Shown piece by piece: positions 18,941 to 25,266 of a stretch of DNA of 31,476 nt. A program made the translations under genes and the position numbers. Every line of letters begins with the position of its first letter. Within the stretch, counting starts at the first letter, position 1. A model generated the notes under the pieces. The model worked only from the letters and a program-made list of their open reading frames with translations, was not told the DNA's origin and searched no databases. Origin of the DNA: Methanomicrobiaceae archaeon UBA207 (GTDB taxonomy: Archaea; Halobacteriota; Methanomicrobia; Methanomicrobiales; Methanoculleaceae); the NCBI GenBank assembly GCA_002503135.1, contig DARA01000042.1, positions 1 to 31,476 of the forward strand. Reading direction: 5' to 3'.

Positions 18941-19450
18941 ATGCAGGGAGATAACGAATACGAGAATGTGCTGAGGCGATTTTATAGGAAATCTCTGATC
19001 CTGGAATCACCATCTGAATTTCATCATGTGCTCTGTTTCCATTTCATTGACGCCCTTGCGCACATTGATTTCAGCCTGAATACGCTGGCATATAATTACC
19101 AGTCTCCAAGAAACATCATGAATATGCAGTATATGCGCTGGCGCATTGATGAGGAGAAGAAAGAAGAATATGCTCATTTTGGTGAATTTATCAGGTGGCT
19201 GAAATCAGAGCACCCTGATGTATTTGCCTCGCTCCCGATGGTCTGGAGGTATGTATATGACCCTGAGAACCATGCAGGCTATCGCAGCTTCAGGATTGTG
19301 CTTGACCCTGACAGCAACAAACCGTTGCCCCCAGGTTTCTTCATTGATGCTATAGAGGAGTTTTTCGATCAGAAGTTTCTGAAGAGTATATACAAGGGGG
19401 CATCCCTTGCCCGGCTCTTTGATGAATTCATTGCAGCCGGAATATCCTGA
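18941..19450 (+). CDS. Conserved hypothetical protein (methanogen type), function unknown
   Basis: Aromatic-rich globular-looking 169-aa ORF, co-oriented between moaA and the M20 gene. No motif recognised. Confidence 0.7.
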   Translation: MQGDNEYENVLRRFYRKSLILESPSEFHHVLCFHFIDALAHIDFSLNTLAYNYQSPRNIMNMQYMRWRIDEEKKEEYAHFGEFIRWLKSEHPDVFASLPMVWRYVYDPENHAGYRSFRIVLDPDSNKPLPPGFFIDAIEEFFDQKFLKSIYKGASLARLFDEFIAAGIS

Positions 19451-19467
19451 GCCGGCGTGGTGGTAAG

Positions 19468-20637
19468 ATGGATGTCGCCAGCCTCTGTTCCACCCTTGTC
19501 CAGATAAGAAGTGAGAATCCACCTGGAAAGACCAGAGATATCATCGAGTATATCAGGGGTTTTCTCGACTCGCTCGGACTGCGCAGCAGTGCTGTCAGTG
19601 CCGGGGGAGGAAGATGCAACCTCGTTGCGGTGGAGCCTGACTGCCGTTTTCTCCTCTGCGGGCATGTGGATGTGGTCCCTGCACTGAAGGCGGGCTGGAC
19701 GCATGACCCCTTCTCCGGGGAGGTGGCAGAGGGGTATGTCAGGGGCAGGGGCTCGACTGATATGAAAGGGGGGTGCGCCGCCATGCTCTGTGCATACAGG
19801 GACCTGCTCAATCAGGGCATCGAACCGAAAGCCGGTTTCGCATTTGTCTGTGATGAGGAGACGGGCGGAGAGCATGGTATGCGGCATCTGCTTGCAAAGA
19901 ACACTCTCAGCCCCTGTGATGCCCTGATCGCAGAGCCGACACCCCCTCTCAGCCCCTGCATCGGGCAGAAGGGAATGTGCAGGCTGGAAGTCACGTTTTC
20001 CGGAGTGCCGGGTCACAGTTCTCTCTACCCTGCCATGGGCGTCAGTGCGATCATGGAGGCATACTCTCTCCTCAGGCATCTGAATGAGATTCATAATATA
20101 GATGTGCCGGTTGACGAATCTCTGAAGGAGGTCATCTCTACCTCCTCCCGGGTGCTTGAAGAGATATTTGGCAGGGAAGGGCTGGGAGATGTCCTGACCC
20201 GGGTCATGTTCAACCCGGGCAGGATCGAAGGGGGTGAGAAGGCGAATATCGTGGCGCAACGGTGCAGGCTGGAGCTCGACCTCCGTGTCCCGTGGGGCTG
20301 CACAACCGGGCGCCTGATCAGGTTGATCCGGGACCGTGCCCCAAATGCGAAGATGAATGTGATGAATGCATTTGAACCGAACCTCACCCTGCCTGATGCG
20401 CGTATTACGGCTGTTGTCTGCAGGGAGATAGCACGGGTATATGGCAGCCCGGCGGTCCCGATTGTGCAGTGGGCGGCGAGTGATGCGAGGTATCTCCGGA
20501 GCGCCGGGTTTGATGTGGTGGATTACGGTCCCGGAGAGATCACCACCCTCCATGGAATTGATGAGAGAGTCTCAATAGAAAATCTCGAAAAGGCGGTTGA
20601 TGTCTACAGGGGTGTTATACGCACATATTCCAGGTGA
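19468..20637 (+). CDS. M20 family metallo-hydrolase (ArgE/DapE-like)
   Basis: CGHVDVVP, GRGSTDMKGG, CDEETGG, IAEPT, GHSS, GEKANIV, ASDARY, YGPG, HGIDE. Substrate not assignable: methanogens generally use DapL rather than DapE. Confidence 0.88.
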   Translation: MDVASLCSTLVQIRSENPPGKTRDIIEYIRGFLDSLGLRSSAVSAGGGRCNLVAVEPDCRFLLCGHVDVVPALKAGWTHDPFSGEVAEGYVRGRGSTDMKGGCAAMLCAYRDLLNQGIEPKAGFAFVCDEETGGEHGMRHLLAKNTLSPCDALIAEPTPPLSPCIGQKGMCRLEVTFSGVPGHSSLYPAMGVSAIMEAYSLLRHLNEIHNIDVPVDESLKEVISTSSRVLEEIFGREGLGDVLTRVMFNPGRIEGGEKANIVAQRCRLELDLRVPWGCTTGRLIRLIRDRAPNAKMNVMNAFEPNLTLPDARITAVVCREIARVYGSPAVPIVQWAASDARYLRSAGFDVVDYGPGEITTLHGIDERVSIENLEKAVDVYRGVIRTYSR

Positions 20638-20752
20638 CTGAGTCATCGGAGATGACATGTGCCACCGGCCTGCGGGCGGTGACTGAGTTATCGGAGATGA
20701 CATGTGCCACACCTGAGACGGCGTGACTGAGCTGACGCAGTCAGCATATGCC
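20634..20752 (+). repeat. Three-unit array GTGACTGA-[6-bp hairpin, C(GNA)G loop]-ATRTGCC, period 45/44 nt
   Basis: Units at 20634-20663, 20679-20708 and 20723-20752. Units 1 and 2 differ at 1 of 30 nt; unit 3 has a different but fully paired stem. Confidence 0.85.
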
Positions 20753-20840
20753 TCGGAATGCACAACACTCCCGTCCATGAGCGGCGGACCATAGTTTATA
20801 ACAATTCCGCACTGAATTATAGTAAAAGACTGTGATTGGG

Positions 20841-22562
20841 ATGGAAGATATCTACGAGAAGGTCATGGAACTTGCAAAGCGCCGCGGTTTTGTATGGCCG
20901 TCATCCGAATGCTATGGCTCAGTCGCCGGGCTCATTGATTATGGTCCCCTTGGCGCCGGGATGAAGCGCAGGATTGAGAATATCTGGAGAGATTTTTACG
21001 TCATAAGAGAGGGATTTTTTGAGATAGAGTGCCCCACCATCGGTCCGGAGCCTGTCTTCATCGCGTCAGGGCATGTGGGGGGTTTCTCAGACAAGATGTG
21101 CCGGTGCCCTGAGTGCGGCGAGTACCTCCGTGCAGATCATATTGTGGAGGGGTGTCTGGAGGGTTCTGCCGCACTTATGCAGAAAGAAGACCTGGAAGAG
21201 GCGCTCAGAGACTTCCCCTGCCCTGCCTGTGGTGAAACACTTGGTGCACCCACGGTGTTTGACTTCAATTTAATGTTTGAAACTGCCATCGGTCCCGGGT
21301 CACAGCGTAAGGGGTATCTCAGACCGGAAACGGCGCAGGGGATATTCACTGACTTTGGACGGCTGCTTCGTTTTTACCGGGATAAACTGCCGTTTGGAGC
21401 TGTTCAGATCGGGAAGTCCTACCGGAATGAGATATCACCCCGCCAGGGCATGATCCGGCTTCGTGAGTTTTCGCAGGCAGAGGCTGAGATATTTGTACAT
21501 CCTGAAAAGAAGCAGCACCCCTCATTCAGCCGTTACGCCAGCTATACTCTTCCATTGCTGGGCAGCAGTCAGCAGGAAAGCGGTGAACCCCCTCTTGAGG
21601 TTACGATGGCCGATGCGGTTGCATCGGGTCTGGTCGCAAATGAATATGTGGCATACTATCTTGCGCTGACCCATGACCTTCTCGTTTCCATAGGCATCAC
21701 CCCTGAAAAACTCAGGTTCAGGCAGCACCTGCCTGACGAACGGGCGCATTACGCCATCGACTGCTGGGATGCAGAGGTGCATTCCGACCGTTTCGGGTGG
21801 GTCGAGACTGTGGGAATCGCTGACCGCACAGACTATGACCTCAGGGCGCATGCCAGGCATAGCGGGGAGTCATTTACTGTATTCATCCAGTTCACAGAAC
21901 CCCGCAGGGTAAAGCAGGTGAGAATATCGCCCAAAATGGGTATTATGGGACCGAAATTTCGCGGAAAAGCGAAAGCAATCTTAGAAATGCTGAAAACAGC
22001 GTCACCCGGTCCGGACGGGGTTGAGATCATACTCGATGGTGAGACGATCCTGATCACTCCTGATCTCTATGATGTCTGCGAGGAGGAGGTTGAGGTCAGG
22101 GGGGAGGAGGTCATGCCGCATGTCATAGAGCCGTCATATGGGATTGACCGGATGATCTATGGCGTGCTCGAGCACACCTATGCAGAAGAGATGGTGGAGG
22201 GTGAGGTGAGAAAGGTCCTCCGCCTCCCCACGGCGGTTGCACCTGTGCAGGTGTCGGTCCTGCCGCTGATGAACCGGGACGGACTTGAGGGTGCTGCCAG
22301 GGAGATCTACCTCACTCTTCTCACACACAGGATTTTTGCCATCTACGATGATTCTGGTGCCATCGGCAGGCGGTACCGCAGGCAGGATGAGATCGGGACG
22401 CCGTTTGCCGTCACTATCGACTATGATACCCTGGAGGACGGCACTGTAACCATACGTGACCGTGATAGCATGGAGCAGGTCCGGTGCCCCGCAGACCATC
22501 TGGTCGCCACCCTCTCCGCGCTCATCAGTGGTTCGATCACATTTGAATCGCTTCAGACATGA
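20841..22562 (+). CDS. glyS: Glycyl-tRNA synthetase (eukaryote/archaeal homodimeric type)
   Basis: LAKRRGF, DYGPLG, LRPETAQGIF, QIGKSYRNEISPRQG..RLREFSQAE, PHVIEPSYGIDR, SGAIGRRYRRQDEIGTP. Confidence 0.96.
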   Translation: MEDIYEKVMELAKRRGFVWPSSECYGSVAGLIDYGPLGAGMKRRIENIWRDFYVIREGFFEIECPTIGPEPVFIASGHVGGFSDKMCRCPECGEYLRADHIVEGCLEGSAALMQKEDLEEALRDFPCPACGETLGAPTVFDFNLMFETAIGPGSQRKGYLRPETAQGIFTDFGRLLRFYRDKLPFGAVQIGKSYRNEISPRQGMIRLREFSQAEAEIFVHPEKKQHPSFSRYASYTLPLLGSSQQESGEPPLEVTMADAVASGLVANEYVAYYLALTHDLLVSIGITPEKLRFRQHLPDERAHYAIDCWDAEVHSDRFGWVETVGIADRTDYDLRAHARHSGESFTVFIQFTEPRRVKQVRISPKMGIMGPKFRGKAKAILEMLKTASPGPDGVEIILDGETILITPDLYDVCEEEVEVRGEEVMPHVIEPSYGIDRMIYGVLEHTYAEEMVEGEVRKVLRLPTAVAPVQVSVLPLMNRDGLEGAAREIYLTLLTHRIFAIYDDSGAIGRRYRRQDEIGTPFAVTIDYDTLEDGTVTIRDRDSMEQVRCPADHLVATLSALISGSITFESLQT

Positions 22563-24895
22563 AATACATTACCCACCCGTATATTCGTCCGGAAAGTCTT
22601 GAAGAGCGTAGTTATCAGCTCTCTATCGCCATGAAGGCGCTCGACGGCAACACCATGGTGGTGCTGCCCACAGGGCTTGGAAAGACTGCCATTGCACTCC
22701 TGGTGGCAGCATCACGCCTCTATAATGGTGGCGGGCGGGTACTGGTGCTCGCACCCACCAAGCCCCTGGTGGAGCAGCACCTCAGATTTTTTCAGGAGTT
22801 TCTCATGCTCCCGGAAAGCGCCGGCAGCGTCGGCTCCCCATTCGCCATGTTCACAGGGGAGACCCCGCCTGAAGAGCGTGCACACGTATGGAAAACCTCA
22901 CAGGTCTGCTTTGCGACCCCACAGGTCATCAAGAATGACTGCATCGGCGGGAGGTACTCCCTTGAGGATGTATCACTCCTGGTCGTGGACGAATGCCACC
23001 GCGCTGTCGGCAACTATGCCTATGTCTTTATCGCGGATCTCTATCTCAGGGTCGCAAAAAAACCCCTGATCCTTGCAATGACCGCATCTCCCGGGGCGGA
23101 CCCCGTGAAGGTGGAGGGCGTCTATGCCTGTCTTGGTATAGATCGTGTGGAGAGCAGGGTCGAGAGCGACCCTGATGTGGAACCCTATGTACATGAGAGG
23201 GAGGTGGAGTATGTCAGTGTAGCCCTGCCCCCTGAGTTGCAGGAGACTCTCACCGACTTCACCACCCTCGTCACCGCCCGTCTGCAAAGTCTTGCAGACC
23301 TTGGTTTTGCCGTACCAAAACCGGAGAGGCTCTCCATCCGGGCGCTGAGTGCACTGAACGGGCAGATCCAGGGGCGGATTGCAGCCCGTGACCCCAGGGC
23401 ATACAGGGCAGCCTCCCTCTATGCGGAATGCATGAAGCTCCGTCATGCGATCTCGCTCTGCGAGTCGCAGGGAAGCGGTGCGCTGAAGGCGTATCTTGCC
23501 AGACTGGCGTCAGAGGGCTCATCCGGCAAGGCGAGCAAGGCGAGCAGGCGCCTCTCCCATGACCCGCTTTTCAGGAATGTGCTGAGGCGCGCCGAAGGAT
23601 GGACCGATGAACTCCACCCGAAAGCCGGGATTGTTATCAGGCAGGTGAGGGAACACTTCAAAGCCCGTCCTGACAGCAGGATCATCATATTCGCCACCTA
23701 CAGGGACACCGTCATGATGCTCGTGGACCTTCTCTCCAGGGAAGGTATCACCTGCGAAAAGTTTGTGGGGCAGGCAAACAGGGATGCAGAGAAGGGACTC
23801 TCGCAGAAGAAGCAGCTGGAAGCCCTCTCACGTTTCCGTGCCGGTGAGTTCAGGGTGCTCATCGCGACATCGGTCGGGGAGGAGGGGCTGGACATTCCCT
23901 CTACTGACATGGTAATCTTCTATGAGGCGGTCCCATCAGAGATCAGGAGCATCCAGCGGAAAGGCAGGACCGGCAGAAGCCGCAGCGGGAAGATCCTGGT
24001 GCTGGTGACCAGTGGAACTTCTGATGAAGCATTCAGGTACGTCAGCCAGCGCCGGGAGCGTTCAATGGTTTCAGGGATAAGGGGCATGAGCGGGCAGGAC
24101 CGGCAGAAGCCGCATGATGCGCCGCAGCACACCTTCCCGTCGTGGGAAGGTGTTCGAACACCACTTATGGGAAGTGGTGTACAGCACACACCTCCGTGGG
24201 GGAGTGTTCCAGCACCACTTGTGGGGCAGTCCGGGCTGGATACTTTTCTCACACAGGAACCGCGGATTGTGGTCGATGACAGGGAGACCTCCTCGCAGGT
24301 GGTGGAGACGCTTCATACTCTGGGTGCAGATATTGAACTGCGGCGTCTTGATTCCGGAGACTACGCGATCGGTGACCGCATCCTTGTTGAAAGAAAAACT
24401 GCTCGCGATTTTATGGACACCCTGATCAACCGCGACATCTTTGGTCAGATCAAAAAGATGGCAGAGGCAGTCCCGCGCCCGATTCTCATCATCGAGGGGC
24501 CTGAAGATCTCTACCGCGTCAGGAACATCCACCCCAATGCGATCAGGGGCACACTCGCGGCAATTGCTGTTGATATGGGTGTAACACTATTTTTCACAGC
24601 AGATGGAGAGGAAACCGCCAATATGCTCTATGTGCTTGCACGCAGGGAGGAAGGGAGCCGTGGAGAGCGGAAGATGCATCCAAGAAAGTCGTACCGCTCG
24701 CTCCGTGAAGAGCAGGAGTATGTCCTCACCTCATTCCCTAGTATCGGGTTGAAGAATGCACGCCTCCTGCTCGAACATTTTGGGTCGCTTAAAGCAGTGA
24801 TCGATGCCGGGAAAGAGGATCTCGTCTCAGTGAAGGGGATTGGAGAAAAGACGGCATCCAGAATCTGGGACCTCTCCCGCCGCACCTACTCCTGA
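22559..24895 (+). CDS. hef: Hef: SF2 helicase fused to ERCC4/XPF nuclease
   Basis: LPTGLGKT, DECHR, MTASPG, ATSVGEEGLDIP, IQRKGRTGR; then VDDRE, ILVERKT..DF, IIEG and C-terminal HhH (PSIGLKNA, KGIGEKTA). Confidence 0.95.
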   Translation: MKYITHPYIRPESLEERSYQLSIAMKALDGNTMVVLPTGLGKTAIALLVAASRLYNGGGRVLVLAPTKPLVEQHLRFFQEFLMLPESAGSVGSPFAMFTGETPPEERAHVWKTSQVCFATPQVIKNDCIGGRYSLEDVSLLVVDECHRAVGNYAYVFIADLYLRVAKKPLILAMTASPGADPVKVEGVYACLGIDRVESRVESDPDVEPYVHEREVEYVSVALPPELQETLTDFTTLVTARLQSLADLGFAVPKPERLSIRALSALNGQIQGRIAARDPRAYRAASLYAECMKLRHAISLCESQGSGALKAYLARLASEGSSGKASKASRRLSHDPLFRNVLRRAEGWTDELHPKAGIVIRQVREHFKARPDSRIIIFATYRDTVMMLVDLLSREGITCEKFVGQANRDAEKGLSQKKQLEALSRFRAGEFRVLIATSVGEEGLDIPSTDMVIFYEAVPSEIRSIQRKGRTGRSRSGKILVLVTSGTSDEAFRYVSQRRERSMVSGIRGMSGQDRQKPHDAPQHTFPSWEGVRTPLMGSGVQHTPPWGSVPAPLVGQSGLDTFLTQEPRIVVDDRETSSQVVETLHTLGADIELRRLDSGDYAIGDRILVERKTARDFMDTLINRDIFGQIKKMAEAVPRPILIIEGPEDLYRVRNIHPNAIRGTLAAIAVDMGVTLFFTADGEETANMLYVLARREEGSRGERKMHPRKSYRSLREEQEYVLTSFPSIGLKNARLLLEHFGSLKAVIDAGKEDLVSVKGIGEKTASRIWDLSRRTYS
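24126..24231. repeat. Tandem palindromic units inside the hef linker
   Basis: ACACCTTCCC-gtcgt-GGGAAGGTGT (24129-24153), ACACCACTT-atggg-AAGTGGTGT (24158-24180), plus two degenerate units. Confidence 0.8.
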
Positions 24896-25266
24896 GTGAG
24901 GTGCAGGAGCGCCTCAACACCTTTCAGCACACACTCCATCAGTGTGAGGCAGTTGTCAGGGGAGGGTTCCTCACGGATGCGGGTGCAGATATGGATGATG
25001 GTGGATTCAAGCTCGGCGGCAGTTTCGCCCTGCCCCCGCAGTCCGGGCGCGGCTCTCCTCTCCTGCACATCCGGTTTATCATCCCGGGATTTTTCCATCC
25101 CTGTTCTCCCCTTCCTCTTCTTCTCCTCCCTGCAGACCGGGCAAAGGGTCTCACCCCTGCATTCAAAGAGCGGGGACCCGCATGTCGGGCAGGCTTTTGC
25201 AAGCATCTTCCCGCCTTTGAGGAGATATTCCGCCATGATCTCTTCAGGTGCGCTGCCCGTTTCCAT
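24886..25266 (-). CDS. UPF0148 / Sjogren autoantigen-1 family zinc-ribbon protein
   Basis: MAEYLLKGGKMLAKACPTCGSPLF...CPVC. Confidence 0.85.
   Translation of the reverse strand: METGSAPEEIMAEYLLKGGKMLAKACPTCGSPLFECRGETLCPVCREEKKRKGRTGMEKSRDDKPDVQERRAAPGLRGQGETAAELESTIIHICTRIREEPSPDNCLTLMECVLKGVEALLHLTQE

Follow-up and report, generated by a model that had tools for sequence, protein, structure and literature searches.

A tandem hairpin array beside an archaeal M20 peptidase gene probably consists of copies of a selfish palindromic mini-element

The window analyzed here is a 31,476-nucleotide (nt) stretch of DNA from Methanomicrobiaceae archaeon UBA207, which corresponds to contig C8 (DARA01000042.1) of a 1.29-Mb assembly with 77 contigs, 54% G+C, and a completeness of 84%. 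Between the genes for an M20 peptidase and glyS, the window contains three consecutive hairpins on the + strand (20634-20752). Our analysis indicates that these hairpins are very probably tandem copies of a palindromic mini-element that is non-autonomous and specific to this lineage, here termed T2, and that T2 is most likely selfish DNA. Many independent lineage-specific insertions of T2 are found in the genome, both between genes and in frame within genes. The hairpin arms remain complementary while the stem sequences differ, intragenic copies persist only in open frames, and the array in the window is polymorphic for insertions and deletions, with a natural allele that lacks it.

In each unit of the array, the 8-mer GTGACTGA precedes a hairpin with a 6-bp stem and a 3-nt loop, and the flank ATRTGCC follows it; the unit starts are spaced 45 and 44 nt apart. 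The pattern GTGACTGA-N15-ATRTGCC has three matches in the window compared with 0.20 expected from shuffles, in agreement with the first-pass annotation, which had described the three units from the letters alone. As also described there, four of the six stem pairs are changed on both sides between units 1 and 3, unit 2 has one T.G wobble, and unit 1 contains the M20 stop codon. The features of the locus are as follows (C numbers below denote contigs of the assembly).

19468-20637: M20 peptidase gene, with Pfam Peptidase_M20 and M20_dimer
20634..20663, + strand: T2 unit 1, with core GTGACTGA, stem GTCATC/GATGAC, loop GGA, and 3' flank ATGTGCC; matched by both the covariance model and nhmmer
20635..20637, + strand: M20 peptidase stop codon TGA, at bases 2-4 of unit 1 and overlapping the T2 core
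20661..20683, + strand: linker hairpin B1, with foot GCCAC...GTGAC, an inner stem, and a TGC loop; its 3' arm is common with the core of unit 2
20679..20708, + strand: T2 unit 2, with stem GTTATC/GATGAC (one T.G wobble) and loop GGA; covariance model 70.9 bits
20706..20727, + strand: linker hairpin B2, GCCAC-ACCTGAGACGGC-GTGAC; the same linker type is also found on C5, C22, and C13
20723..20752, + strand: T2 unit 3, with stem GCTGAC/GTCAGC, loop GCA, and 3' flank ATATGCC; covariance model 55.1 bits
20795..20801, + strand: TATA-like TTTATAA, approximately 40 nt before the likely glyS start ATG at 20841

Unit 1 is truncated at its 5' end, with no TGTCAC or linker hairpin preceding it. The start of the array coincides with the M20 stop, and GGTGA is common to the gene and the T2 core. 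Since the M20 proteins of seven relatives from several genera end with ..YS(G/S/W)* at the equivalent position, TCC AGG TGA in the window represents the native M20 C-terminus. The M20 and glyS genes are co-directional, and the position of the TATA-like box suggests that the glyS promoter is located downstream of the array, which would place the array in the M20 3' region. By folding energy, the array does not stand out (z = -1.5 as DNA and -1.7 as RNA), and the evidence for structure therefore comes from covariation rather than from stability.

Comparison of 46 aligned copies revealed double-sided changes at all six stem pairs of the main hairpin, with 97.5% of the cells paired, and the pairing and covariation observed over the whole structure were reached by none of 500 shuffles. 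When the partner columns were slid, pairing fell to 27–60%. The linkers between the units have the lengths of 15 and 14 nt given in the first-pass annotation, but they are not dissimilar as was thought: they form a second hairpin with a conserved GTCAC...GTGAC foot (GYCAC at the window) and a covarying inner stem. Because the linkers themselves form a covarying hairpin, the T2 unit is a two-hairpin module with a period of 44–45 nt. Its order is TGTCAC, hairpin B, GTGAC-TGA, hairpin A (6 bp), and ATG or RGA, and its 45 nt amount to 15 codons. The 8-mer GTGACTGA is invariant and directly precedes the foot of the covarying hairpin on the 5' side, and the stems are perfect, without mismatch. T2 arrays run head-to-tail and contain one to three units. 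The loop is GGA, GAA, or GCA in 25 of the 51 copies, so that the G-x-A loop is the commonest form but not the constant one it had been taken for; GGTA, AAA, TTC, and AGA also occur, and the C(GNA)G mini-hairpin is common in T2, not defining. At least two subfamilies can be distinguished, one with GTCAYC/GRTGAC stems and an ATGTG flank and the other with GCCGAY or ACCACC stems and an RGATG flank, and the bordering trinucleotide (ATG or RGA) goes with the subfamily. Solo units begin with TGTCAC and end with GTGACA, and direct repeats of 3–6 nt (ATG/ATGT, TGTCAC) are present at their borders. Stem covariation alone is no proof of selection on RNA, as it is equally expected if hairpin DNA is mobilized.

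T2 is dispersed throughout its own genome. The 8-mer GTGACTGA occurs 98 times, and the hairpin and flank follow about half of these occurrences. An nhmmer search with the T2 profile identified 51 matches (E < 1e-4) at 42 places; the reversed genome gave none. The copies are spread over more than 30 contigs. As had been proposed in the first-pass annotation, a covariance model was built, here of the 62-nt unit, and it gave 65 matches in the genome, 51 of them at >=34 bits, compared with only isolated weak matches (<=24 bits) in 40 relatives from the same family and order. The proposed pattern search likewise showed the family to be widespread in its own genome, but the exact T2 pattern was found in 0 of the 40 relatives. 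A GTDB-wide scan with a loose pattern returned only chance matches among the matches listed, including a single Methanospirillum match without the hairpin, and the exact T2 pattern and that of the partner module T1 (below) had no match in the JGI metagenome and IMG/VR scans, in which records of the genome itself are possibly not included. Relative to their neighbors, the intergenic copies do not clearly favor one orientation (approximately eight co-directional sense, five co-directional antisense, seven divergent, and four convergent). The copy numbers are lower bounds, as repeats break or confuse assembly. Scaffold gaps (N runs) adjoin T1 or T2 modules on C14 (~13960), C35 (~10628), C11 (~11165), and C32 (~15155), and the HerA gene on C35 is interrupted by an N run adjoining a repeat module. 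In the window itself, the T2 covariance model has another, weak match at positions 598-660 (18.3 bits, E 4e-4), which is either a degraded copy or chance.

T2 is intermixed with a second palindromic module, T1, which consists of (GC)ACACC, a variable stem of 4–6 bp, a loop, the complementary stem, and GGTGT(GC). T1 is often dimeric, with the two copies joined by TCGA. The nhmmer search located T1 at 47 loci in the genome and at none on the reversed genome, and its junction was absent from all 40 relatives and from all 400 genomes searched in 45 genera of the class. T1 and T2 form composite arrays, for instance at C13:23930-24260 and C29:8500-8700, and one and the same module can be found at several loci, combined differently with others. 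The window holds one T1 mosaic.

24126..24231, + strand: T1 mosaic in the Hef gene (22559-24895), with ACACC, variable stem, GGTGT, and TCGA joints, in frame in the linker between Helicase_C and ERCC4

Approximately 15 of the 51 or so strong T2 copies (about 30%) are intragenic and in frame, spread over about a dozen genes that are unrelated to each other. Comparison with the orthologs of relatives verified four insertion sites in three genes, and the remaining copies were judged by translation and by Pfam domains flanking the copy or just upstream of it.

C13:20775-22151: MFS transporter, with +18 amino acids (aa) from a T1 dimer and about +48 aa from a T1/T2 mosaic in the central loop; ortholog comparison
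C67:19026-19970: periplasmic binding protein, with exactly +15 aa, equal to one 45-nt T2 unit; ortholog comparison
C40: aspartate dehydrogenase, with about +20 aa just after the Rossmann glycine motif; ortholog comparison
C16:14695-15162 (locus L209): ribosomal protein L32e, with an in-frame T2 unit just after the conserved domain, followed by an acidic tail
C37:11296-13404 (locus L133): CetZ (tubulin-like) gene, with two T2 units in an open C-terminal extension of ~330 aa past CetZ_C
PfkB kinase: T2 units just before GAGDAF; Pfam and translation
DUF2953 protein: in-frame T2 copy; Pfam and translation
DUF7847 membrane protein: two antisense T2 units; Pfam and translation
4Fe-4S protein: antisense T2 copy; Pfam and translation
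IF-2B-family protein: T2 copy in the tail; Pfam and translation

No ortholog of the PfkB kinase was found in 10 relatives at E <= 1e-20, and this insertion is therefore based on Pfam only. The CetZ extension may be either real protein or an open reading frame (ORF) kept open by the repeats. In the sense orientation, only frame 1 of T2 is open (VTESPxV(T/M)), whereas frames 2 and 3 reach TGA within the 8-nt core, and all sense-strand intragenic copies are in frame 1. The TGA of the T2 core also serves as the stop codon of several genes (on C10, C22, and C32). Because of the in-frame intragenic copies, we interpret T2 as selfish DNA, and we consider this result decisive.

To these copies, the window adds evidence from natural variation. 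We compared the contigs of four sequencing runs over positions 19400-25000; the window DNA is present in marine-sediment runs and partly in subsurface and cold-seep runs. The array is identical in JGI 3300031919, JGI 3300031921, GCA_030626605.1, and SRR5036789. In the subsurface and cold-seep runs (X6 and X9), which come from different studies, a joint at 20623>20745 omits 121 nt (20624-20744). A 251-nt contig from the subsurface run spans the joint with 117 and 134 nt on either side and shows no other differences. The two edges of this allele carry the same pentanucleotide.

20624..20628, + strand: left CATAT repeat, at the left edge of the 121-nt deletion allele, within the native M20 codons ACA TAT
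20745..20749, + strand: right CATAT repeat, at the right edge, at the end of the unit-3 stem and its 3' flank

The allele lacks the last two native M20 codons, the stop, and nearly the whole array, and its M20 frame would extend by 15 codons. Because the skipped part holds native sequence, including the TCC AGG TGA conserved in seven relatives, we rejected the allele as an ancestral empty site and regard it as probably a secondary deletion at the microhomology. Under either reading, nature shows the array to be both dispensable and unstable. The third T1 module of Hef (24189-24212) differs in the subsurface run X6 by eight clustered substitutions and three inserted letters, so module content varies between strains at a fixed locus. 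Two assemblies of the same population (L222 and L223) differ from the window by one 1-nt indel at ~19430-19470, near the M20 start; their M20 gene call is cut to 284 aa, probably owing to an assembly or homopolymer error.

Other structural readings of the repeats were tried and rejected. Read as a K-turn (box C/D-like), CUGA...GAUG is compatible with the minor subfamily alone, the one with the RGAUG flank, as the main subfamily has AUGU and no 3-nt bulge. In a bulge-helix-bulge mini-intron, the unpaired segments would have to be staggered, but here they lie opposite each other, and the in-frame, stop-free copies argue for translation. The ATG 3' of the hairpin does not behave as a gene start: nearly all such ORFs have 4–70 codons, and the recurrent 'MFKHRF' is the following T1 module. 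A CRISPR array was rejected since the 14–15-nt 'spacers' are hairpins that recur at other loci, and the arrays have one to three units and are also intragenic.

If T2 is selfish DNA, its copying would take place at the DNA level, with single-stranded hairpin DNA together with the conserved foot and flank as the probable target of recognition. Because the hairpin DNA would be what is recognized, the arms would stay complementary while the stem sequence drifts, giving covariation without an RNA function. The junction motifs GTSAC and ATGT recur inside T2 itself, and new copies may land at or beside sequences that resemble its own junctions, which would produce head-to-tail arrays and mosaics. 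Borders lie at identities of 3–6 nt, namely GGTGA at the M20 stop, TGTCAC in the binding-protein gene, and CATAT at the deletion, which points to the use of targets or microhomology. Selection would then filter the copies, so that intragenic survivors read in frame 1 or lie antisense in an open frame; a copy in either of the remaining two frames would truncate the protein and be tolerated only near the 3' end of a gene. For neither the M20 gene nor glyS is the array in the window likely to have a dedicated function.

Several points weigh against this interpretation. No Y1/HUH (PF01797), DDE_Tnp_1, IS110, or DUF559 gene was found in the 84%-complete assembly, although at this completeness the negative enzyme searches are not decisive. 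The copies of TnpB (IS1341-like) have ends unrelated to T1 and T2 (right end ...GTAGTTGAC). None of the genes that lie between arrays resembles a gene for a mobilizing enzyme: they are housekeeping genes or lack a Pfam match, and they encode a ThiD-type kinase, an ABC1 kinase, NurA, a CLC channel, MarR, Sm, and two small unknown proteins. The first-pass annotation had seen no cognate enzyme in the window, none was found in the rest of the incomplete genome either, and the linked HUH or TnpA(REP)-like gene that it proposed to look for near the arrays was not found among these genes. The genus is represented by this one genome. No transposition event and no clean empty site were observed, the sole polymorphism being better read as a secondary deletion, and target duplications are indistinguishable from the periodic ends of T2 itself. 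Intergenic copies may also have an added role at the RNA level or in DNA binding.

The assembly holds these other mobile-element genes.

C27:8750-9862, C77:1-570, and C54:1-592: TnpB-only (IS1341-like) element, two or three copies, with no TnpA (Y1) gene in the assembly
C22:28296-28754 and C22:29212-29363: tyrosine recombinase gene (369-aa open frame) approximately 450 nt from a triple T2 array at the contig end

Tyrosine recombinases are present in the genome, and no link between them and the repeats was found.

Among the alternatives, T2 could be a true repetitive extragenic palindrome (REP) or bacterial interspersed mosaic element (BIME), the units being bound and moved by a REP-associated Y1 (HUH) transposase (RAYT) that reads the motif 5' of the foot on single-stranded DNA. 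The invariant 8-mer directly 5' of the covarying hairpin and the clustered, mosaic arrangement of the units fit this proposal, and published REPs of E. coli likewise have a conserved GTAG 5' of the foot and keep their stems paired by complementary changes (PMC3333891). We nevertheless consider it rather unlikely. The genome has no PF01797 match, with the reservation of its completeness, the T2 units are arranged head-to-tail instead of as inverted REP/iREP pairs, their perfect stems lack the mismatch that TnpA-REP of E. coli requires, and the intragenic location of about 30% of the copies is no REP trait. The REP/BIME-like array suggested by the first-pass annotation is thus borne out in its conserved 5' motif, which differs in sequence from GTAG, and in its covarying stems and mosaic clusters, but not in extragenic location or inverted pairing.

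A distinctly unlikely explanation is that T1 and T2 represent an unrecognized class of ultra-small (45–54 nt, whole-codon) two-hairpin mobile modules with a mechanism undescribed for such repeats. Such modules might be moved by an archaeal enzyme that recognizes hairpin DNA, or by an enzyme-light process, such as microhomology-primed template switching at replication forks that targets GTSAC/ATGT junctions. The TGA stops in two frames and the single open frame would then be an evolved 'safe landing' design and not an accident.

The solo units, of the form TGTCAC...GTGACA with short bordering direct repeats of 3–6 nt (ATG/ATGT, TGTCAC), recall a classical MITE (miniature inverted-repeat transposable element), a deletion derivative of an insertion sequence (IS) with TGTCAC/GTGACA terminal inverted repeats that is moved by a DDE transposase and makes target-site duplications. 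This origin appears very unlikely, as 45 nt is far below known MITE sizes, and neither a DDE_Tnp_1 or IS110 gene nor a parent IS with such ends was found in the genome. Moreover, the bordering trinucleotide follows the subfamily (ATG or RGA) and is probably part of the element rather than a duplication.

We regard it as highly improbable that the array is a functional RNA, in which repeated protein-binding or stabilizer/terminator hairpins in the M20 3' untranslated region or the glyS leader would be under selection for RNA structure. The covarying stems, the conserved flanks, and the position between two co-directional genes agree with the protein-binding RNA module put forward in the first-pass annotation. 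That proposal is not supported, since copies lie in frame within unrelated genes in both orientations, intergenic copies are antisense to both neighbors at about five loci, the array is absent from natural alleles, and the TATA-like box for glyS is located downstream of it. Folded as RNA, the array reaches a z-score of only -1.7, it is not followed by a T-run in the window sequence, and the best match in Rfam reached 17.4 bits against a gathering score of 70, with nothing above noise. Finally, the outcome that the first-pass annotation had named as refuting its reading, in which a local tandem duplication happened once and the third hairpin is due to chance, has a negligible probability, as has an assembly artefact. 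Testing left nothing in favor of either, and both are already refuted, because more than 50 copies with paired stems lie on more than 30 contigs, the array is identical in independent assemblies, and contigs of other runs join T2 sequence to other flanks.

With T2 read as selfish DNA, a candidate new RNA or REP system gives way to a well-documented case in which an uncultured archaeon from marine sediment (class Methanomicrobia) carries selfish palindromic DNA. Rickettsia is the best-known source of in-frame hairpin repeats, and the in-frame copies in L32e, Hef, CetZ, aspartate dehydrogenase, and several transporters point to a recurrent entry route for linker peptides in Archaea too. As a compact modular family with two module types and clear covariation, T1 and T2 are a good substrate for the question of what is recognized when such repeats, including those of the Rickettsia type, are mobilized. 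For annotation, it matters that the units supply stop codons, break assemblies, and inflate ORFs.

Among known systems, BOX elements are modular, and their short boxB module (45 nt) is found in tandem within composite elements, a design to which that of T2 may be comparable. The BOX elements of Streptococcus pneumoniae (PMC3049150) differ from T2 in having defined A-B-C ends and in being bacterial. The REP/BIME/REPIN repeats of Proteobacteria with their RAYT (TnpA-REP) (PMC3333891, PMC2817692, PMC3116915) share with T2 hairpin units of ~30–40 nt, an invariant short motif 5' of the foot, compensatory stem changes, mosaic arrays with variable linkers, and array copy numbers that are polymorphic between strains. 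They differ in being extragenic inverted pairs that require a stem mismatch and a RAYT gene, whereas T2 is head-to-tail and often intragenic, with perfect stems and no Y1 gene found. T2 was also set beside the Rickettsia palindromic element (RPE) and MJRE, by behavior and published descriptions. RPE is in-frame selfish palindromic DNA, as reported by Ogata et al. (2000) and summarized in the reviews PMC2229807 and PMC10969869. Like T2, it is a dispersed, lineage-restricted palindromic repeat with many copies in frame in unrelated housekeeping genes, presumably translated, and no transposase of its own is known. RPEs are single long stem-loops of ~105–150 bp, while T2 is a 45-nt unit of two mini-hairpins, modular, tandem, and mosaic with a second module, in an archaeal host. 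MJRE comprises palindromic repeats of Methanocaldococcus jannaschii that have coding potential, according to PMC2229807 and PMC2996958, which cite Suyama, Lathe and Bork (2005), and, as far as it is described there, it resembles T2 as a palindromic repeat family of a methanogenic archaeon that lies in frame within genes. It belongs to another archaeal order, and the genomes searched contained no look-alike of the T2 sequence. T2 shares with RPE and MJRE its dispersed palindromes in one lineage and its in-frame insertions that are absent from orthologs. The array is thus not the undescribed kind of system proposed in the first-pass annotation: in-frame palindromic selfish repeats are a known kind, from Rickettsia and Methanocaldococcus, and it is the T2 sequence family that is probably new.

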